This document shows, in pieces, positions 18,782-29,609 of a stretch of DNA of 64,000 bases. Each line of letters starts with the position of its first letter. The stretch's first letter is position 1. The stretch is from positions 384,001 through 448,000 of the forward strand of contig CAXXDV010000001.1 of assembly GCA_963674745.2 (NCBI GenBank), given 5' to 3'. A program made the position numbers and the translations under genes. The notes below the pieces were generated by a model. The model saw only the letters and a program-made list of their open reading frames with translations. It ran no database searches and was not told the origin of the DNA. The stretch is from Desulfosudaceae bacterium. Lineage in GTDB: Bacteria; Desulfobacterota; Desulfobacteria; Desulfobacterales; Desulfosudaceae.

Positions 18782-20178
18782 ATGCCCAGAATACTGCTTA
18801 TTAAGCCCTATTCTTACAGCGACGTCATCACCCCCCCCCCCTGGGACTGGGTTACTTGGCGGCGAATCTGGATCAGAACACCGAGGTAATGATTTTTGAC
18901 GGTGTCCGGGACCAGTTGACACCCTCAAAGCTGACGGAGACAATCAAATTGTTTCAACCGGACATGGTCGGGTTATCAATTGTGTCTGCAGCATCAAAGA
19001 CGGTCCTTGATGATATCCGGGTTGTCCGTCGCCTTCTGCCCGACGCCGTCATTGTCGCCGGCGGTCCGCACCCCAGCCTGTTGCCCCACGAATTCAACGC
19101 GGCCGCGGAGGACAGTATTGACTATATATTACGTGGCGATGCTGAAACGGCATTCAGGATGCTGGTGGCGCGATGCTGGAATCAACGCAGCCGGGATATT
19201 TCCAGCCGGGACATCGCGGATATCCCGGGAATCTGGTCAAAAACACGGGACGGTATGGTTTCTTCGGATATACCGCTCAACCAGGCCTGTGATGAACTCG
19301 GCATCCCGGCATGGGATTTAATGCCGCCGGCCGAATATCCCAGGGTTCCTCAGGGGGAATTTTTCAAAAATTTTCCTGTGGCCCCGGTAATTACCAGTCG
19401 TGGATGTCCCTTTGAATGCGGTTTCTGCAGCGTGGCGGCTTTGAAGGGAAAAACGGTTCGGTTTCGCAGCCCCGACCTGATCGCCGACGAAATTCAACTC
19501 CTGAAAAACAAATTCGGCGTAAAAGAAATCCAGTTTGTTGACGACAATCTTACGGTTTCCAAAGAACACGTGCTGAGCGTCTGCGAAGCCATGCTAAACA
19601 GGAATCTAGACATTCCCTGGTCTTGCCCCAACGGTGTTCGAGTCGATACCCTGGATGATGACATTGTCGAGGCCATGAAAGCTGCCGGATGTTATTCTGT
19701 TTCCGTTGGTCTGGAAACCGCCAATCCCGACGTTCTGGAACGAATGAACAAGCATCTTGATCCGGATAAAGCCATCGAAGCCGTTCACCGGGTTGCCCGC
19801 AAAAAGATAGAGGTCAACGGCTTTTTTATTTTAGGTTATCCAGGCGACAATGAGGCGAACATTAAAGACACGATCCGCCTGGCCAAACGACTGCCTTTGA
19901 CCCGGGCACACTTCATGCTTTTTACGCCTTTCCCGGGTAGCCGGGAATACGAACGGCTGTCCCGGGTTTCCGGGAATCGTGTACCACATGACGCCACTTT
20001 TGCCCAGGTCTCTTATGTGCCACACGGGATGACGAAAAAGGATCTTAAACGTCTTCACCGACGGGCATTTATCGAATTCTACGCCCGTCCTGCTGCCGCT
20101 TGGAAGCTGGTGAAGGCAGTAAATTCTCTGAACGGGCTTTACTATTTTCTGCGAAGAACGTTTCACTGGTTGGGATAA
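18782..20178 (+). CDS. B12-binding-domain radical SAM gene, frameshifted at a C11 tract near the 5' end
   Basis: ATG 18782 gives MPRILLIKPYSYSDVITPP; the expected LGLGYLAA continuation is in the 18856 frame. SRGCPFECGFC, PNGVRVD and PFPGS are intact downstream. Confidence 0.85.
18831..18841 (+). repeat. Poly-C homopolymer (C11)
   Basis: Sequence atca-ccccccccccc-tggg. C9 or C12 would restore the reading frame. Confidence 0.9.
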
Positions 20179-21426
20179 ATGGCCGGAACAGGCAACACCA
20201 TCATACTGCTCAATCCGCCTTATCGGAAAAAGATACTGCGGGATTACTACTGCTCCACATTTCCCAAAGCGCCATATTACTGGCAGCCCATTGATCTGCT
20301 GTCTGTGGCGGCCATTCTAAACGGCAAAGCGGATATCCAGGTAATCGATGCTGTTGCCCGGCGACTGACGGCAAGCCAGGTTGAAAGTATCATGGCCGAA
20401 CAGGCGCCTCGAGCCGTATTCATGCTGGTTTCCTCTTTAACGAAAGACGCCGATCTGACGCTGGCCAAAAGGATCAAGAAACCGGGACGACGAATCGTAA
20501 TCGGGGGAGAAATCGCACTTGCCCCTGATTTCGACTTTGCACAACATGATGCCGTTGACGGCCTGCTGCTGGACTTTACCGATGAGGGGGCGGTTGGATT
20601 CATTGCCGGTGAAAATCCAACCGGCAGGTTGAGAACCCCGTGGCATGCCCCCGCCACGCCACGAATCGGACACCGATATAACCTGGGCATAATGCCCCAT
20701 CACCTTCTGGATAATAGCCGATACCGTCTGCCGCTCTGGCAGGGCCGTTTTTATTCCCTGCTGACAGATTTCGGTTGCCCCTTTAACTGCCGTTTCTGTA
20801 ACTCAGGAAGACAATCCATCGGTTTCAAGTTAAGGGATTTGGCGGAAGTCGCAGAAGAAGCCAGGCAGCTAAAAAGACTCGGGGCAAAAAAAATCTTTAT
20901 CAAGGACATGACTTTTGGGGCAGACCGGTCTCATGCCGAATCGGTTTTATCCATACTGGCGCCCTATGGTTTCAGACTGAGGGGATACCTGCGGGCCGAC
21001 CTGATAACCCAGAAGTTTGCCGGTTTGTTGAAAGCGGCCGGGTTTGAACTGGCACAGATCGGTGTGGAGCGCCCCCTGGAAGACGTCAGACGCGGTTTAG
21101 GAAAAAATATTCCCGACGCAGTTATCGCCGACGCCTTTCAAATTCTACGCCGGATCGGAATTGATGCCGGCGCTCACTTTATCGTCGGTTTTGAGGGTGA
21201 CGGCACAGGAACAGCAGGCGCCTGTATCAAACAAGCCCGGGCCCTTGGAGCGGCTTATTGTTCCATCAATATTTATCAACATCGTCTGGGGGCATCCGCC
21301 CTGCCGGCATTATCCGGCTGGGGGAAACACGCACTCTCTCTTTGCGCCGGTTTTAACATGGCCAGATATAACGGCCGCCGTCAAATAAGCTGCCTATGGA
21401 AAAATATGAGGGCCGGGAACAGATAA
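20179..21426 (+). CDS. B12-binding-domain radical SAM protein
   Basis: LLNPP..RDYYCS..YYWQPIDL N-terminus; GCPFNCRFC; DMTF; IGVE; HFIVGF. Starts immediately after the upstream stop codon. Confidence 0.8.
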   Translation: MAGTGNTIILLNPPYRKKILRDYYCSTFPKAPYYWQPIDLLSVAAILNGKADIQVIDAVARRLTASQVESIMAEQAPRAVFMLVSSLTKDADLTLAKRIKKPGRRIVIGGEIALAPDFDFAQHDAVDGLLLDFTDEGAVGFIAGENPTGRLRTPWHAPATPRIGHRYNLGIMPHHLLDNSRYRLPLWQGRFYSLLTDFGCPFNCRFCNSGRQSIGFKLRDLAEVAEEARQLKRLGAKKIFIKDMTFGADRSHAESVLSILAPYGFRLRGYLRADLITQKFAGLLKAAGFELAQIGVERPLEDVRRGLGKNIPDAVIADAFQILRRIGIDAGAHFIVGFEGDGTGTAGACIKQARALGAAYCSINIYQHRLGASALPALSGWGKHALSLCAGFNMARYNGRRQISCLWKNMRAGNR

Positions 21427-21780: not shown

Positions 21781-21929
21781 TATGGGCACCTCTAAAAATT
21801 GTCTTAGGGCCCGATGTCGGTGTTGTGCTCAAATTTTAATCCTCGAGATACTTCAATGTATTCCTCCGGTTAAAATTTTCACACGCCTTGACCTCGAACC
21901 AGAATGCTATTTTTTAAAAGTAGCCCATA
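21781..21929. repeat. MITE/REP-like inverted-repeat element, copy B
   Basis: Left end TATGGGCACCTCTAAAAA versus reverse complement of right end TATGGGCTACTTTTAAAAA. Internal palindromic AAATTTTAA/TTAAAATTT and ATAC/GTAT, plus CACGCCTTGA. Confidence 0.7.
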
Positions 21930-21960
21930 TAAATAAGACAATAACAGTCAGGAGAAACAG

Positions 21961-22482
21961 ATGCTTTATTCAAAAACAGTCATGGATCACTTCAGAAGCC
22001 CCAGAAATGTCGGCGAAATCGAAGACGCTGACGGTGTTGGCGAGGTCGGCAACCCCATTTGCGGGGACATGATGACCATCTACATCAAAGTCGTGGATGA
22101 ACATATAAAAGACATTAAATTCCAGACTTTCGGGTGCGGCTCCGCCATTGCGGTATCGAGCATGCTGACGGAAATCGCCATGGGTAAATCAATTGAAGAG
22201 GCCAAGAAAATCACCAACAAGGACGTGGCCGAAGCGTTGGACGGTCTGCCCAAAAACAAGCTGCACTGCTCCAACCTGGGCGCTGACGCCCTGCAGATGG
22301 CCATAAAAGACTACGAAGACAGGAAAGCGGGCATCGTCCGGCCGAGAGAAGAGCACCGGGAAAAACATGTCCATATCCATGAAGACGGTTCCTGCCATTG
22401 CCCCTACTGTGATTCGGAAGTGGATCAGGATGCCAAGTTCTGCAATGCCTGCCTGTCGGACATCGACGAAGATGAGCATTAA
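21961..22482 (+). CDS. iscU: Fe-S cluster scaffold IscU/NifU-N with His-rich linker and C-terminal zinc ribbon
   Basis: YSKTVMDHF..PRNVG; NPICGD; FGCGSAIA; LPKNKLHCSNL; tail HVHIHE and CPYC..CNAC. Confidence 0.92.
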   Translation: MLYSKTVMDHFRSPRNVGEIEDADGVGEVGNPICGDMMTIYIKVVDEHIKDIKFQTFGCGSAIAVSSMLTEIAMGKSIEEAKKITNKDVAEALDGLPKNKLHCSNLGADALQMAIKDYEDRKAGIVRPREEHREKHVHIHEDGSCHCPYCDSEVDQDAKFCNACLSDIDEDEH

Positions 22483-22541
22483 ACATGTGTGCTTAATTAA
22501 TAGCCGCCTTTAATTTGCACCAAGACTACACGGAGTCAGCC

Positions 22542-23709
22542 ATGAGCAAAATCAATCTGGACCATATATCCGCCAGCCATTTGTTACCGGAAGTGCAGGA
22601 GGCCATGATCAAGGCCATTCAAGGGACGCTGGGCAACCCCTCCAGCCAGAACATGGAAGGGGAACGCGCGTCCGCCATGCTGGGAAAAGCCCGGGAATCA
22701 GTCGCCGGCCTGATCAATGCCCAATACCCGACTGAAGTTGTTTTTAACTCCTGCGGCACCGAATCCATCAACCACGCCATCAAGGGCGTGGCCAGAGCCA
22801 ACACTAAAAAAGGCAACCATATTGTCACCTCCAATATTGAACATAACGCCGTCAACCGCAGCTTAAAACGACTGATGCAGCTGGGGTGCAAAAGTACCGC
22901 CGTCGCCGTTGACAACAAGGGGCTGGTTGATCCGGAAGAGGTGGCCCGGGCCATTACCGACGAAACGATACTTGTGTCGATCATGCACAGCAACAACGAA
23001 ATCGGCACCATCCAACCCCTCAAGGAAATCGCTCAAATTACCAGAGAAAAAAAGGTGATCCTGCACACCGATGCCGTGGATTCTGTTGGTATCGTGCCGA
23101 TTGATGTCGAGGACCTGGGCGTTGACCTGATGAGCTTTGCCTCAAACCCCTTTTACGGCCCGACCGGAGTGGGTGGACTGTACATCCGGCGCGGTACCAA
23201 CGTCTGGCCCATTATCGACGGCGGGGTCCAGGAAAAAAAACCGTCGGGCCGGCACGGAAAACCTGATCGGCATTATCGGCATGGGCGTGGCTTCAGACCT
23301 GGCCCGTCGCGACATGAATGACAGGCTGACCCATCTCAAAAAGCTGAAAAGCCTCCTGTTGAACGAGTTGCCCAATTATGTCGATGAATACATCATTAAC
23401 GGCGACGTGGAAAACGGCCTGCCCAACCTGGTGTCTGTCTCCCTCAAATATATCGAGGGCGAAAGCATCATGCTCATGCTGGATGATGAAGGCTTTACCG
23501 TATCCACCCGGTCTGCCTGCGCCACCGGTTCGCTGCGGGCATCCCATGTACTGATGGCCATCGGCCTGGACCATGCCGACGCCCAGGGTACCCTGGTCAT
23601 TACCCTGGGAGTGGAAAACACCGAGGACGACATCATCAACTTTTTAAAAGCCCTTAAAAGCATCGTGGATTCACTTCGGGCCATGTCCCCGCTGTACAAA
23701 AATCGATAA
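22542..23709 (+). CDS. iscS: IscS/NifS-like cysteine desulfurase homolog, split by a +1 frameshift at an A8 run and lacking the canonical PLP lysine
   Basis: GNPSS, GTES, IEH, HSNNEIGTIQP, HTDAV, GGVQE/RRAGTEN and SACATGS motifs. The two ORFs (22515-23321 and 23137-23709) join if A8 at 23233-23240 is A7. Confidence 0.85.
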
Positions 23710-24043
23710 TCCCAAAGATTACCCGTCCATCCGCAAAGGAACGCGTAATTTATACAGGAATCAATCCGTTGCCTGATTTTCATTGGTAAAGGAATAACTG
23801 GAAAAATATTGACATACATTGCCGGTCTTGCTAAGAAGAATGTCCATAAGCATTTTTTTTGACAACATCGCTGTGTGCGTTTCCCGGTTCAATAGAGTTA
23901 AACAAAGGTCTTCTGAACTCTTTTCCATGCCATTACAACGGTGTTATCAAAAACCCAACCGGCACTGAGGGTGAGCTACCATACTGATATCACATAAATT
24001 GACACCATAGCTGTTCTCTTAATGATTTTTTAATGGGGGGGCC

Positions 24044-25561
24044 ATGACAAAATATCGTACTGTCTTTCATTTCCTGTTGATCCTGCTGGGTTTGTCATTA
24101 CCCGTGGGGGCGGCGCAGGATGCCCGGCAAAACGGGCAGGCCATGTTCCGCATGGGGGTATTCGCCTATGAAAGCGGAGACTATAAAACCGCTGAAAGCT
24201 ATCTCAAGCAGGCGCTTGTATCCGATGAAAACAACGCCTATGTCAATTATTATCTGGGCAATGTCTATCTGCATACCGGAAACTATTCCCGGGCGGCGGT
24301 GTTTTTTGACAAAACCCGGAGCCTGGATAAAAGCCTGCCCGACCTGGCTTATAACTGGGCCTATGTCAATTTCAAGCTGAACAATTTCGACGCAGCCGGG
24401 CAATTGTTTGAAAAGCTGACGGCCTCGGAACCCGACAATGTCCTGGCCCATTACTACGCCGGCCTGTCTTTATTCAAGCAGGGCAAATATCAGCCGGCCC
24501 TACCGTTTTTAGACCGGGCCGTACGGATGAATACGCCTGTCAGCTGCCACGCCGATTATCATGCGGCCCTATGTGATCTGCAGCTCAAGAACACGGATTC
24601 AGCCAGAGATCGCCTGACACGCGTTCAGGAAAATACCGCCGAAGAAGACCTGCGCCGGGCCGCGACCGATCTTCTGGAAAGAATCAGGCGTGGTGAGCAA
24701 CCCGGAAAGCGCTATGCCCTGACGGCCAAGCTGGGCTGGGAGTATGACGATAATGAAGCCCTGGAGCCCATCGACGACAACGATCTTTTCGCGGATGACG
24801 CCGATTATATTTTCAGCGGCTTCCTGTCAGCATCCTATGACCTGATCCGGACAGACCGTTTTATCTTTGGGGCCGGTTACAGCCATTACCTGACGATCCA
24901 TAAAGAAATCGAAGAGTACGATCTGTCGGCCAGCCTGTTTGACGTTTACGCCCGGTATCGCCGCAATGCCTATACCTATTCCTTTCAATACAACCCCGAC
25001 TATTACTGGCTGGACTCCGAGAGTTACCTGTGCCGGCATGAGTTCAGGTTTATTGTCAGCCGGATGTTTGACAATGTTTTAACGGAATTCACCGGCATCC
25101 ACAGGCGGGACAACAACATGTATGACCCCGATAAAGACGGTTATGCCAACGAGGTTTTTTTCAGGTGCCGGTACAGCCTGCCGGAAGAAAAAGGGGAACT
25201 GCGGGCCGGTCTGGGTTATGAGGTAAATACCGCCGACCATCGGGACCATGATTACAAGACCATCGGCACCGAACTGGCGGCGGCCTTCAACCTCGGCTGG
25301 GAGGTTTGCCTGACGCTCAGCGGCGAATGCGACTTTCAGCAATACGATCACACGGATTCTTTTTACGGAAAAAAGCGGGACGACACCCGGTTTATCGGAA
25401 ACATCCTGCTGTCCCGGAACATTTTCAACGACATGATCGCGGCCCATATCGGCTATGAGTACACCCGGAACAGATCGAACATAGATGATTTCAGTCAGTA
25501 CAACGCCAATTTCGATTATGAAAGTAATGCCGTCAAAGTTTTCCTGACGCTCACCATTTAA
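24044..25561 (+). CDS. Signal-peptide TPR protein with probable C-terminal outer-membrane beta-barrel (Slam/DUF560-like)
   Basis: Signal peptide; Tyr/Ala/Gly-rich TPR repeats; GWEYDDN followed by aromatic alternating strands; KKRDD and RNRSNI..YE near the C-terminus. Confidence 0.65.
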   Translation: MTKYRTVFHFLLILLGLSLPVGAAQDARQNGQAMFRMGVFAYESGDYKTAESYLKQALVSDENNAYVNYYLGNVYLHTGNYSRAAVFFDKTRSLDKSLPDLAYNWAYVNFKLNNFDAAGQLFEKLTASEPDNVLAHYYAGLSLFKQGKYQPALPFLDRAVRMNTPVSCHADYHAALCDLQLKNTDSARDRLTRVQENTAEEDLRRAATDLLERIRRGEQPGKRYALTAKLGWEYDDNEALEPIDDNDLFADDADYIFSGFLSASYDLIRTDRFIFGAGYSHYLTIHKEIEEYDLSASLFDVYARYRRNAYTYSFQYNPDYYWLDSESYLCRHEFRFIVSRMFDNVLTEFTGIHRRDNNMYDPDKDGYANEVFFRCRYSLPEEKGELRAGLGYEVNTADHRDHDYKTIGTELAAAFNLGWEVCLTLSGECDFQQYDHTDSFYGKKRDDTRFIGNILLSRNIFNDMIAAHIGYEYTRNRSNIDDFSQYNANFDYESNAVKVFLTLTI

Positions 25562-25577
25562 TATTCAGGAGTCAACC

Positions 25578-26567
25578 ATGACAGAATTCAATAACAGTTT
25601 TTTGCGGGGCTGGTTACCGATCGTGCTGATCTTGACGACTGTCAGCCTTGTCTGGGGGATTAACAACGCTCAAGCCCGGGATGGAGTCATACCCGATGAT
25701 CTGCCCCTGGAATCAACCTTCTGGCCGGGGCCCGGTAGAAGCGTGGGGGTGGTCGATGTCATTCAGGGGAAAGCCGTTGTCCAGCATGAAAATGAAAAGC
25801 GGGGATACCTGGTCAGCAAAGGGATGAACCTGTACAACGGCGACACCCTTTACACATCCGGTGATTGTCACCTGGAAATGTCGCTCAACGACGGCAGCAA
25901 CATGGTGCTTTCTTCCGGCACGCAGATCGTCATTGATAAAAGCATTTACGATCCCGCCTCCGGAAGCCGGCTCTCCTTTTTCCAGATGCTGTCCGGCAAG
26001 GCCCGTTACATGGTCAAGAAACTGGCCGACTACAAACATTCCCAGTTCAACGTCAAGACAAAATCATCCGTCGTGGGCGTCCGGGGATCGGACTTTGTCA
26101 TTGAAATCAGCCAGGAGGGCGACAAAATCGTCATCACCGCCCTGGGCCACACCATTCTGGAGATATTTGATCCAGCCAACCCCCTGACGGAACCGGTCAT
26201 AGTCACCTCCTTTCAGCAGCTGATCACCGTACTGGGCCAGGTCCTGGGTGAGCCGGTGGACATCTCAAGTGAAGAAGTCATGAAACTGCTTCAGGAGCTG
26301 GGCCTGCTCTTATCCGGCGGCGGCGGCCAGGGCGGAGAAGGAACCGGCGGCGGCGGGGGCTTTATTCCCCACGGCGGAACCTGGCAGGGTCCGCCGGTTG
26401 GAGGAGGAATTCAATATTTACCCGGCTGGAATCCTTTCTTGCCCATACTGCCGCCACCGATCTTCGGCCCCGGCCCCAATGACCCTTTTTATAACGACCC
26501 GGGCGCCTGGATAAGGCCGCCCTTGACACTCCCCCTGCCGGACATGCCCGATATACCCATGGATTAG
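25578..26567 (+). CDS. FecR-domain periplasmic protein with Gly- and Pro-rich tail
   Basis: Signal peptide; LYNGDTLYT; LNDGS; FNVKTKSSVVGVRGSDF (FecR motif). Confidence 0.8.
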   Translation: MTEFNNSFLRGWLPIVLILTTVSLVWGINNAQARDGVIPDDLPLESTFWPGPGRSVGVVDVIQGKAVVQHENEKRGYLVSKGMNLYNGDTLYTSGDCHLEMSLNDGSNMVLSSGTQIVIDKSIYDPASGSRLSFFQMLSGKARYMVKKLADYKHSQFNVKTKSSVVGVRGSDFVIEISQEGDKIVITALGHTILEIFDPANPLTEPVIVTSFQQLITVLGQVLGEPVDISSEEVMKLLQELGLLLSGGGGQGGEGTGGGGGFIPHGGTWQGPPVGGGIQYLPGWNPFLPILPPPIFGPGPNDPFYNDPGAWIRPPLTLPLPDMPDIPMD

Positions 26568-26618
26568 GGGCTTTAGTATAATTAAATAAATTTTGACCCA
26601 AAGCAGGAGACAAGCGTC

Positions 26619-29609
26619 ATGAAAAATATCAGGCTCATTTTGTTAACCCTATTTATCGCCGTGCTGGCCGCCCTGCCGGCAACAGCGGCCGTCTACTATG
26701 TAGACATTGTAAACGGCACCGATGATCCCTTCAACGGTTTAACCCCGGGCACGGGCGCCTGGAAGACCATTCATTACGCGGTCGACGAGATTGTTGCCTC
26801 AACCGGTGGAAATGGTGATACCCTGAATATTGCGGCCGGTACGTACTCTGTATCTGCTTTAGTGCCCGGCGGCGAGTCTGACAGCCCACTGACGTTTAAC
26901 GGTTGGAGCAACTCCTCTATCCTCGGAGACCCGGCCGGCGGTACCATAATTGACCTGAACTCAGCTGTTTCATGGGCCAACGGGATTCAGCTGGACTTTT
27001 GCTCCAATGTCACCGCCAGTAACCTCGAAATTACAAATGCTTATAACAACGGCATTTATGCCGACGGATGCACGGGCACCGCCATCACCCGGTGCGACAT
27101 CCATAACAACAGCAATTTTGGTGTTTACCTCAACAACTGCAACAACACCAATACGGTCAGTCGTAACCGGGTTTATGACAACCCGAACGGCATTGGTGTT
27201 TATGCGCAAGAGGAAAACGATCCCTGCTCGCCTTTGATCGTTAACAACCTGATTGTCACGCCGGAAGAGAGCATGTTCCAGGGCATCATGGTAATATCAA
27301 CCGGTTACACTTACCCTGCCTTTGCCTCTCCCACGATATTTCACAACACCATTGACGGCGGCGGTAACGACGGCATTTATCTTTTTACATTCGGCCCTTT
27401 TGCTATAACCAACCCGAACATTCAATACAATATCATTACCGGTTTCGGTAACAACGGTATTAACGGTGGTACTGACGGCTACGGCGGCCAGCTCAACCCG
27501 ACCCTGAATTATAATGACCTTTTTGGAAATTCAACGGCTTATTCCGGCACCGGCATTGGGCCGGGGCCTAACAGCATTGCTGTTGATCCCGTTTATTCCG
27601 GCGGTGGTTTTGAGTTAGATCCTTCCTCGCCCTGCATCGACGCGGCCACCACTTCCAACATCACCGAGGATATCGACGGCACGGTCCGCCCCCAGGGGAC
27701 AGCCCCGGATATGGGCTGTTATGAATATCCCAGCGGCGTTATCACTCCGGAGCCGGTGGCCTATCCCGGCATAACGGTTCTGCCCTATGAAGGACTGGAG
27801 ACCAGTGAAGACGGCAACAGGGCCACGTTCACGGTAAAACTCGACACCCTCCCCTCGGCCCCGGTAGTGATCCCCATTACCAGTTCCGATACGGGTGAAG
27901 GCGCGGTTTTGCCGGCATCTCTGACGTTTACCGCCAACAACTGGTTTACCCCCCAGACCGTGGTTGTCAGGGGGGTTGATGACAGCCTGGTCGACGGCGA
28001 TATCCCTTATACCGTCGGTGTCGGTCCGGCCGTCTGCAACACCTTTGATTACAACGGGCGGAGCGGACATGATGTCAATGTAACCAACCTCGATAACGAC
28101 AGTGCCGATATCATTGTCGACCCGACCTCGGGTTTGAGGACCTCCAAGTTCGGCGGCAGTGATACCTTCACGGTGGTGCTGAACAGCCAGCCCATCGCAC
28201 CGGTGGCGGTTTCGCTGTCCAGTTCCGACACAAGCCTCGGCATTCCCTCTCCAGAGGCGCTTACCTTCACCCCGGACAACTGGAGCCGGCCGCAGACCGT
28301 CACGGTTACCGGCCAGGACAACGGGATCGAAGAAGACGCCCCGTATACGATTATTACCGCACCTGCGGTAAGCCAGGACCCGATTTACAACGATCTTGAT
28401 GCTGACGATGTCGAGGTTGTCAATGTCTACAACATGCCCCCGGATCAACCCGGCTATGTTTTCCCGCAGCCTTTTCAGATGTTCCCGCCGGGAACATCGA
28501 TTACCCTGAGAGGCAGCACCTTTTATGATCCCGAGGGTGATAGGCATGATCAAAGCTGGTGGCGGATCGCGCCGCTCAACCGGGGCGCTTTCGGGTGCGA
28601 AGAATACCCGGGATTTTTTGAACATATCTCAGGCACTGATTTGACATCATACACCATCCCCACCCAGAACCTGAAACCGGGCGTGGTTTATGTCTGGATC
28701 GTCGGTTACAAAGACGAGGGAAGCGGGGCTTTCACCTGGTCGGACCTGGATGAGAGAGTGAAGAACACGTTTATGATCGGGGTAGAAGAAACGATTGACC
28801 TGCCGCCGGTCCCACCGGGCACAACTGCGGCCTATTTTGTCATGCTCTCCTGCCATCACTATATTCCCGACAATTCCAGCGCCCTGGCCGTTATTGGGGA
28901 TGATTTAACCGGTGGTTATGACAGCCGTTATTACCGCATCGGCACATATGACCCCTTACAGAATGACGGCGGCTATAAGGAGTATCCCGGGTTCAGCCTC
29001 CTTCCCGGTACCGCTTTCTGGGTGTTGGCCAGAAACGGCCTGGCCATCGACCTGACCGGTATTGCCATGACCACTGCCGAAGACGTGGATCTTCCGCTGA
29101 TGTTCAACAGCAATAATAATAACGGCTGGAACATGATCGGCCCGCCGAACAACCAGAATTATCCCTGGGGCAATGTTCAAGTCGTTGTGTTTTCTCAATC
29201 CAATCTCTGCGAACCCGAATTCGGTCCGGTCACAATCGGTGAGCTTGATCCCAACAACCCTTATATCGACACCCGACTGCTGGAATGGGACGGACAGGGC
29301 TATAATGAAGTATCCATGATGATGGCGGGTTATGGTTACTGGGTAAAAGTCAGGCAGCCGAGAATAAACCTGCGGTTTCCGGTCAGCGCCCAGGCATCTC
29401 TGAAAAACCCGGATGTTCTGATGGCCGTCGGCATGAATAAAATCAAAGAAACCGCCGGGGAGCTCTTTTCACCGAATGAAGCCCTGGCGGACGATCAGAA
29501 CGATATGCCGCCGGCTCCCATGGCGACAATCGACAGTGACGGAGTCAACGCTTCTTTCGGTTCGTCATCCGGTGGTAACTGCTTTATCGAAAGCTTGAGG
29601 GATAAATAG
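26619..29609 (+). CDS. Large secreted/surface protein: right-handed beta-helix, two Calx-beta-like Ig repeats, C-terminal GGxCFI motif
   Basis: Signal peptide; YYVD..G.D...WKTI; Asn/Gly-rich helix repeats; SPCIDA..DIDG..RPQG.APDMGCYE; two LTFT..NW..PQTV repeats; ends SSSGGNCFIESLRDK. Confidence 0.75.
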   Translation: MKNIRLILLTLFIAVLAALPATAAVYYVDIVNGTDDPFNGLTPGTGAWKTIHYAVDEIVASTGGNGDTLNIAAGTYSVSALVPGGESDSPLTFNGWSNSSILGDPAGGTIIDLNSAVSWANGIQLDFCSNVTASNLEITNAYNNGIYADGCTGTAITRCDIHNNSNFGVYLNNCNNTNTVSRNRVYDNPNGIGVYAQEENDPCSPLIVNNLIVTPEESMFQGIMVISTGYTYPAFASPTIFHNTIDGGGNDGIYLFTFGPFAITNPNIQYNIITGFGNNGINGGTDGYGGQLNPTLNYNDLFGNSTAYSGTGIGPGPNSIAVDPVYSGGGFELDPSSPCIDAATTSNITEDIDGTVRPQGTAPDMGCYEYPSGVITPEPVAYPGITVLPYEGLETSEDGNRATFTVKLDTLPSAPVVIPITSSDTGEGAVLPASLTFTANNWFTPQTVVVRGVDDSLVDGDIPYTVGVGPAVCNTFDYNGRSGHDVNVTNLDNDSADIIVDPTSGLRTSKFGGSDTFTVVLNSQPIAPVAVSLSSSDTSLGIPSPEALTFTPDNWSRPQTVTVTGQDNGIEEDAPYTIITAPAVSQDPIYNDLDADDVEVVNVYNMPPDQPGYVFPQPFQMFPPGTSITLRGSTFYDPEGDRHDQSWWRIAPLNRGAFGCEEYPGFFEHISGTDLTSYTIPTQNLKPGVVYVWIVGYKDEGSGAFTWSDLDERVKNTFMIGVEETIDLPPVPPGTTAAYFVMLSCHHYIPDNSSALAVIGDDLTGGYDSRYYRIGTYDPLQNDGGYKEYPGFSLLPGTAFWVLARNGLAIDLTGIAMTTAEDVDLPLMFNSNNNNGWNMIGPPNNQNYPWGNVQVVVFSQSNLCEPEFGPVTIGELDPNNPYIDTRLLEWDGQGYNEVSMMMAGYGYWVKVRQPRINLRFPVSAQASLKNPDVLMAVGMNKIKETAGELFSPNEALADDQNDMPPAPMATIDSDGVNASFGSSSGGNCFIESLRDK

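Follow-up and report, generated by a model that had tools for sequence, protein, structure and literature searches.

The IscS protein of the archaeon Archaeoglobus fulgidus carries an aspartate in place of the catalytic lysine, holds pyridoxamine 5'-phosphate (PMP) and has no desulfurase activity (PMC7585200, PMC8918507, PMC13066941; sources cited here by PMC number are used in excerpts). Its cysteine serves as the fourth ligand of a [2Fe-2S] cluster on the scaffold protein IscU (PMC7585200, PMC8918507, PMC13066941). To solve the cluster-loaded complex, an Asp-to-Ala variant of the A. fulgidus scaffold was used. Another archaeal protein, IscS1 (MisS1) of Methanosarcina acetivorans, is reportedly without the catalytic lysine as well, and a mode of action like that of A. 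fulgidus IscS was put forward for it (PMC7585200). The MIS (minimal iron-sulfur) system, MisS-MisU, can use sulfide, and SmsCB was examined for rescue of an E. coli isc suf double mutant supplied with sulfide under anoxia (PMC13066941). For bacteria, no description of a lysine-less NifS or IscS was found in the literature searched, the scope of which excludes the MIS-defining study (Garcia et al. 2022). A 2021 review of bacterial desulfurases holds no passage on Archaeoglobus or an inactive desulfurase, and the excerpts of the MIS review leave lysine-less bacterial forms unmentioned (PMC13066941). Here we analyze a gene of this kind in a 64,000-nucleotide stretch from a Desulfosudaceae bacterium, hereafter the window (assembly GCA_963674745.2, contig CAXXDV010000001.1, positions 384,001 to 448,000). 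We consider it reasonably likely that its product is an intact, conserved bacterial counterpart of the inactive A. fulgidus IscS and the partner of the IscU encoded directly upstream.

The gene lies on the + strand at 22542..23709 and encodes a protein of 388 aa if a homopolymer within it is read as seven adenines. We refer to the product, which is NifS/IscS-like and lacks the lysine for pyridoxal 5'-phosphate (PLP), as the lysine-less NifS. Upstream on the same strand, separated by a spacer of 59 bases, lies the gene of an IscU-type iron-sulfur (Fe-S) scaffold (21961..22482, 173 aa) with the cluster cysteine motifs GNPICGD, FGCGS and LHCSN. All residue numbers below refer to E. coli K-12 IscS, aligned to the window protein (alignment A1), unless stated otherwise. 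In the IscS pocket, K206 forms the Schiff base, Q183 is the O3' ligand, H205 a phosphate ligand and R354 binds the substrate carboxylate, while H104 and D180 hold the pyridoxal ring.

Several of these residues are replaced in the lysine-less NifS. The S-G-H-K-x-Y-G-P-K-G motif of canonical enzymes reads ASNPFYGPTG (23139..23168, +), so that S203-G204-H205-K206 corresponds to A200-S201-N202-P203 and K211 to T208; the Asn-Pro codons AAC CCC that stand for His205-Lys206 are found at 23145-23150 within ...MSFASNPFYGPTGVGGLYIRRG. In the segment HTDAVD (23064-23081), the motif D-A-V-D (23070..23081, +) keeps the equivalent of D180 (D177, codon 23070-23072) and has an aspartate at that of Q183 (D180 of the window protein, codon 23079-23081). 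Near the N-terminus, in DHISAS, A11-T12-T13 became S10-A11-S12, and R354 is replaced by V352, encoded by GTC at 23596..23598 (+) within GTLVITLG. Retained are T76 (T73), H104 (H101, codon 22842..22844, +), T243 (T238) and the mobile-loop cysteine C328 (C326), whose TGC codon at 23518..23520 (+) lies in STRSACATGS. In E. coli IscS, the variants H104Q, D180G, Q183E, K206A and C328S have lost activity (PMC9978102). A first-pass annotation of the window had taken the protein for a pseudo-desulfurase that keeps its loop cysteine and had listed ASNPFYGPTG, DAVD and SAS as substitutions, with the cysteine of SACATGS retained. Every one of these was found again, and the residue pattern agrees with that reading; however, the annotation had overlooked both R354V and a break of the reading frame.

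The loss of the lysine is a property of an entire family. None of the 120 closest database proteins listed (67-100% identity, mostly 387-400 aa) has Lys206; the motif pattern was found in 119 of them by a regular expression, and the remaining one (P0070) reads SFASNPFNGPTG, which is likewise without lysine at that position. Since all 120 listed proteins share the same pattern, the substitutions in the window are not due to chance. A search of 40 related genomes revealed orthologs with 66-84% identity in 13, besides paralogs of about 35-44%, and all 13 orthologs lack the lysine. A partial match of 69% in a further genome (G020, residues 208-386) was left out of these ortholog counts. Furthermore, scanning one genome per species yielded 256 relatives, of which the best 80 loci (60-84% identity) were examined, leaving the other 176 aside. 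Again no lysine was found at position 206, which is occupied by Q (31), P (20), T (14), S (8), A (5), N (1) or I (1). The loss thus proved to be clade-wide, a point for which the first-pass annotation had suggested an alignment of orthologs; retention of SxHK in close orthologs, which it had named as a counterargument, was not seen. According to record titles, the gene is carried by Desulfobacterales, Desulfosudaceae, Desulfococcus, Desulfatiglandales, Syntrophobacterales, Syntrophaceae and Candidatus Abyssobacteria; the cultured Desulfosudis oleivorans (P0058) and Candidatus Adiutricales (P0121) are further named carriers among the listed proteins.

The other pocket positions behave differently from position 206. 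Over the 80 species loci, glutamine never occurs at 183 (D 63, T 10, A 6, S 1), histidine never at 205 (N 78, S 1, G 1) and arginine never at 354, where valine was found in 77. H104 and D180 are present in all 80 loci, T76 in 78, T243 in 69 and C328 in 79; the one locus without C328 is truncated. In the loop segment T322-R323-S324-A325-C326 (numbering of alignment A2), the cysteine is conserved, and the arginine in front of it is invariant and specific to the family. Free variation at position 206 next to a fixed Asn205 and Val354 fits a site that has lost its function within a protein that is still functional. One might also envision that the lysine-less NifS binds a pyridoxal cofactor non-covalently and catalyzes a different reaction, as suggested by the retention of H104, D180, T76 and T243 in most or all loci and by the PMP held in A. 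fulgidus IscS (PMC8918507). However, the protein has lost the Schiff-base lysine together with Q183, H205 and R354, which in IscS bind O3', the phosphate and the substrate carboxylate, respectively; the free exchange of Q, P, T, S and A at 206 argues that no catalytic residue replaced the lysine, and IscS with the K206A exchange is inactive (PMC9978102). We thus regard such a different reaction as improbable.

As deposited, the gene does not form a single open reading frame (ORF). The span 22542-23709 comprises 1168 bases and is not divisible by three, so that the first-pass annotation must have read across a shift. Two ORFs that overlap but differ in frame (22515..23321 and 23137..23709) jointly correspond to one NifS/IscS-like protein. 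Against Pfam PF00266 the two pieces score 178.5 and 46.1 bits, and they cover positions 1-228 (N-terminal piece) and 223-379 (C-terminal piece) of the NCBIfam NifS profile TIGR03402. With 255.6 + 157 bits they stay below its cut-off of 530.75, the sum being rough, as the pieces were scored apart; the same holds for the IscS profile TIGR02006 (217 + 109 bits, likewise from separate pieces, cut-off 643.2). SACATGS and ASNPFYGPTG lie in different frames of the window as given, because a run of eight adenines at 23233..23240 (+) shifts the frame. With seven adenines the gene reads GGVQEKNRRAGTEN, as the orthologs do, and across the junction the sequence ...IDGGVQEKNRRAGTENLIG... is exactly that of the intact orthologs, which measure 387-395 aa. 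The closest congener (locus L009) reads CAGGAAAAAAACCGG, with seven adenines at the same place.

Contigs from public sequencing runs, rather than raw reads, were employed to check this position. Two runs of one sample (X1 and X2) contain 0.97 and 0.95 of the sampled words, while runs X4-X10 contain small shares; among the runs listed, no RNA run contained the sequence. In each of the two, a single contig covers the region (21900-23800, 1901 bases, in X1; 21946-23800, 1855 bases, in X2), and both differ from the window by no substitution and solely by one letter fewer at 23233, which gives seven adenines. We therefore attribute the frame break, with high probability, to an error of the assembly; as contigs derived from reads show seven adenines, the organism most likely carries an intact gene for 388 aa. 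The presumed homopolymer error led to the call of a truncated protein in the assembly (P0003, 259 aa). A genome-wide scan for homopolymer frameshifts yielded 311 candidates at a rate of about 1% at runs of 6 and of at least 8 alike; it picks up mostly ordinary gene junctions and is uninformative on assembly quality.

The family is under purifying selection: the median pairwise ratio of nonsynonymous to synonymous rates (dN/dS, NG86 method) is 0.13 and the maximum 0.25 (14 sequences, 59 pairs with dS < 3). The first-pass annotation had proposed this check along with the alignment, and the window copy, with 0.121 against its congener L009 and 0.121 against L010, equals the two intact congeners compared with each other (0.122). 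It thus shows no relaxed constraint. Decay of the gene, considered as a separate explanation, was rejected on the basis of this equality and of the contigs with seven adenines. Yet in this particular strain the copy could truly, and recently, have become a pseudogene, or it could be switched by phase variation at the homopolymer, and the eight adenines, the two ORFs and the 259-aa gene call of the deposited assembly are what such a case would look like. However, the contigs of both runs have seven adenines and show no further difference along their 1901 and 1855 bases, the dN/dS values of the window copy match the one between intact congeners, and none of the 13 orthologs has an internal stop (one, L020, is cut by its own contig end). 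Consequently, this scenario appears very improbable.

The gene upstream fits the role of a partner. Its product scores 196.3 bits against NCBIfam TIGR03419 (NifU_clost, cut-off 187.9) and 168.8 bits against Pfam NifU_N, and it has the three cluster cysteines plus the Asp and the His; C34, C59 and C103 are invariant in alignment A3. Among solved structures, it is matched best by the A. fulgidus IscU of the IscS-IscU complex (4eb5_C, E 7.5e-55). An IscU lies directly upstream of the lysine-less gene in all 13 relatives, although for L009, which is cut by a contig end, only the C-terminal part of IscU is visible. Among the species loci, 75 extend 600 nt or more upstream, and 73 of these have an IscU there as well. 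On the side of the desulfurase homolog, IscU contacts of E. coli IscS were mapped to the helix 309-316 and the C-terminal helix 379-391 (PMC2854127). In the lysine-less family the docking segments are invariant at E305, G306, E307, L378, R379, S382, P383 and L384 (numbering of A2).

This IscU ends in an additional segment. Its C-terminal ~50 residues (22330-22479) combine a stretch rich in histidine with a CxCPYC...CxxC tail, in which five cysteines are conserved, and the same arrangement was found in 70 of the 73 IscUs upstream of a lysine-less gene. The invariance of the tail cysteines in A3 is partly built in, because rows were chosen by that motif. Against Pfam Zn_Ribbon_1 the tail reaches 22.9 bits, below the cut-off of 25, and CPYC is a glutaredoxin-type motif, too. 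Complex predictions of the tail alone (A3 residues 118-171) with a dimer of the lysine-less NifS and Zn gave scores of 0.32, 0.29 and 0.16, without controls.

Regarding the fold, an AlphaFold model of the congener ortholog reached a pLDDT of 87.6 and a pTM of 0.87, with low confidence only at the cysteine loop (325-332, pLDDT < 50) and at a loop spanning 225-236. Compared with NFS1, A. fulgidus IscS and E. coli IscS, the model gave TM scores of 0.90-0.95. Among the chains listed by the fold search, the family model is closest in sequence to A. fulgidus IscS (44% identity, TM 0.92-0.95). According to this model, the type-I cysteine-desulfurase fold is preserved in the family. As a side observation, the best solved sequence matches of the family are seven variants of one canonical cysteine desulfurase of 406 aa (PDB 9wep, 9wew, 9wfe, 9wer, 9wf8, 9wfb and 9wfy). 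In the three alignments shown, these variants differ at positions that also distinguish the lysine-less family; 9wfe, for example, has Val at the equivalent of Arg354 and Pro at that of Gln183.

To judge the role of such a protein, the remaining Fe-S machinery of the genome has to be considered. The assembly is 99.96% complete. A canonical desulfurase, for which the first-pass annotation had suggested a search, is present: a NifS (locus L001, 1489-2628; C1:917994-919133) with Q183, H205, K206, C328 and R354, which stands alone with no scaffold gene adjoining. It lies about 510 kb from the lysine-less gene on contig C1. Elsewhere the genome has a divergent second IscU-like ORF (L041, 1492-1929) and a stand-alone Nfu domain (L123, 1489-1710). 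For SufB/D, no match to SUFBD_core was found in the genome, while the same search was positive in 14 of 14 control genomes. The genome furthermore contains a dsrA above the curated cut-off with a dsrB-like neighbor.

A similar picture emerged for the relatives. All carriers of the lysine-less gene but one (12 of 13) possess one or more canonical desulfurases with the full pattern; G012 has none at the threshold used, and the canonical copy of G001 is cut before the C-terminal positions. Orthologs of the L001 type (GTTTHDQAGHKKTCR pattern) were found in nine of the 13 and a closely similar ATTT...AGHK pattern in two more. In five relatives that carry the lysine-less gene, a three-domain NifU directly adjoins the canonical NifS. 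For order-level relatives without the lysine-less gene, the gene matched best usually encodes a canonical NifS and directly follows that of a three-domain NifU (~280-316 aa). A simple motif search over 16 loci showed this NifU-NifS arrangement in 11 of them (L023, L025-L029, L031, L034-L037). The IscU/lysine-less NifS and NifU/NifS arrangements appear to be alternatives to each other, even though both occur in five genomes.

Given a canonical desulfurase both here and in 12 of 13 relatives, cysteine-derived sulfur could be supplied in trans. The lysine-less NifS might then act as a sulfur relay, its loop cysteine taking up persulfide from the canonical NifS or from sulfide/polysulfide chemistry and passing it to IscU, in the manner of SufE/SufU. 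Such a role would match the stand-alone canonical NifS of this genome, the occurrence of its orthologs in nine of the 13 relatives with a similar pattern in two more, and the conservation of the loop cysteine together with the family-specific arginine in front of it. However, nothing points to contact between the two proteins, their genes are ~510 kb apart, and the structural evidence from A. fulgidus favors a ligand role of the cysteine (PMC7585200, PMC8918507). We thus consider the relay unlikely.

To place the family among its homologs, the 150 nearest representatives at 50% identity clustering were compared. Lys206 is present in 130 of them and absent from 20; among all 155 aligned rows, including E. 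coli IscS and the genome's own canonical NifS, it occurs in 132. Nearly all of the 20 lysine-less representatives lack Q183 and R354 as well, while H104, D180 and C328 are kept. Before tree building, the trait columns were removed. The resulting trees recover the window family with full support within a mostly lysine-less set of 17-18 rows, in which one row (P0128) has kept the lysine and lost Q183 and R354. An approximately unbiased (AU) test of a single clade for all degenerate forms gave p = 0.245; a single origin is not rejected, and we consequently do not claim an independent loss of the lysine. The A. fulgidus pattern (cluster representative P0155 compared with 4eb5) is T-S-A at 11-13, Q183A, S-S-N-D at 203-206 and R354L, with the cysteine kept. 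Besides, there is a second large lysine-less NifS-like family (P0130 and 119 relatives) with A-G-N-Q at 203-206, Q183A, R354L or R354V and the cysteine kept. The A-G-N-Q pattern was found in all 120 rows, and the only row with an organism name is from the Dehalococcoidia (P0341); thus the lysine-less phenomenon extends beyond the Thermodesulfobacteriota.

Taken together, the reading of the protein as a putative pseudo-desulfurase is well supported by sequence, conservation and context. Several points weigh against its being a functional counterpart of A. fulgidus IscS, as we propose. First, the free trees put the A. fulgidus-type trio (P0155, P0200 and P0218) outside the starred clade of 21 rows that holds the window family, so that the resemblance may be convergent and the mechanism need not match. 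Second, inactivity, PMP and ligation by the cysteine are known for the archaeal protein only. Third, H104 and D180 are invariant and, because these residues hold the ring, a non-covalently bound cofactor with residual or different chemistry remains conceivable. Fourth, with a canonical desulfurase in the same cell a route that relies on sulfide alone is not required, which weakens the necessity of such a route, not its plausibility. Finally, regarding the intactness of the gene, the contigs of X1 and X2 stem from one sample that is possibly the assembly's own source, and minority variants can be hidden in them.

Nevertheless, a mechanism modeled on the A. fulgidus complex can be envisioned. 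Lacking the Schiff-base lysine, Gln183, His205 and Arg354, the lysine-less NifS would no longer be able to perform PLP chemistry on cysteine. Its dimer would dock two IscU molecules via the conserved EGES helix and the C-terminal LR..SPLY helix, and Cys326 might then serve as fourth ligand, or as a handling arm, for a cluster built on the three cysteines of IscU. The sulfur would have to come from elsewhere than from catalysis by the lysine-less NifS: either free sulfide in this dsr-carrying organism or persulfide from the canonical NifS. By analogy with A. fulgidus, we infer the loss of desulfurase activity, the binding of IscU, the ligand role of the cysteine and the source of the sulfur. 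Cluster assembly from free sulfide, which the first-pass annotation had raised as a possibility, would be in line with the presence of dsrA and with the negative search for SufB/D.

One might speculate further that lysine-less NifS and IscU constitute a widespread route, as yet not described, by which bacteria assemble Fe-S clusters with sulfur from sources other than cysteine and in which the dead desulfurase serves as docking platform and fourth ligand only. Such a route would belong to anaerobes with a sulfidic cytoplasm, that is, Thermodesulfobacteriota and, through the separate family with its Dehalococcoidia member, others. The IscU tail, with its histidines and five cysteines, might supply what such a minimal pair lacks, either iron or electrons in the manner of rubredoxin, and in this organism, without SufB/D, the pair could be the main cluster factory. 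We put this forward tentatively and hold it to be rather doubtful. The debate on cysteine-independent Fe-S assembly in anaerobes draws mainly on methanogens and a single Archaeoglobus structure. With at least 80 species-level genomes, which span several orders of Thermodesulfobacteriota and count the cultured Desulfosudis oleivorans among them, the family offers a large bacterial test set in which the desulfurase partner of IscU is predicted from its residues to be catalytically dead, yet is strongly conserved. It also matters for annotation, as members of the family are named 'cysteine desulfurase' in public records.

The surroundings of the gene pair were inspected as well. Directly upstream of the IscU gene lie tandem genes for B12-binding radical S-adenosylmethionine proteins (18856-20178 and 20179-21426), both Fe-S enzymes; they match Pfam B12-binding and Radical_SAM, while all NCBIfam models stay below cut-off. 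Downstream follow a TPR-repeat protein with a signal-like N-terminus (24044-25561) and, on the basis of the ORF list, a protein of 329 aa with a Gly/Pro-rich tail (25578-26567) and a secreted-looking protein of 996 aa (26619-29609). These three downstream genes (24044-29609) appear unrelated to the Fe-S pair. A search with Rfam at gathering thresholds gave no matches in the window, and a scan of the window for promoters and terminators gave consensus-level matches only, with seven promoter-like sites where 3.2 are expected.

Compared with known systems, the lysine-less NifS shares with the canonical NifS and IscS enzymes, such as E. coli IscS and the genome's own NifS, the fold, the mobile cysteine loop and the IscU-docking helices at 38-44% identity. 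In contrast, these enzymes have Q183, H205, K206 and R354, none of which is found in the lysine-less NifS. With the MIS system it has the two-gene layout in common, in which a desulfurase homolog is paired with an IscU-type scaffold; in the ORF list and the family scans, no chaperone, ferredoxin or A-type carrier gene adjoins the pair. MisS, however, is described in the excerpts as a cysteine desulfurase, unlike what the residue pattern of the lysine-less NifS suggests. M. acetivorans IscS1 is archaeal, is encoded in the order iscS-iscU and was insoluble when expressed alone (PMC7585200); the likeness to it is drawn from its published description. Closest is the A. fulgidus IscS2-IscU complex (PDB 4eb5, 4eb7 and 4hvk; D199K variant 4r5f), with which the type-I fold is shared at TM 0.90-0.95 and 42-44% identity. 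The first-pass annotation had named this precedent correctly (PMC7585200, PMC8918507), and the same losses of Q183, H205, K206 and R354 are seen in the alignment with 4eb5. The two proteins differ in detail: A. fulgidus IscS is archaeal and has Asp at the lysine position, whereas the bacterial protein has Pro here and Q, P, T, S or A across its family; position 183 is Ala in the former and Asp in the latter; the arginine before the loop cysteine occurs in the lysine-less NifS family and not in A. fulgidus IscS; and A. fulgidus IscU, which is also extended at its C-terminus, lacks the CxCPYC..CxxC motif of the window IscU. Common to both are the loss of Lys206, His205, Gln183 and Arg354, the retention of the loop cysteine and the pairing with an IscU.

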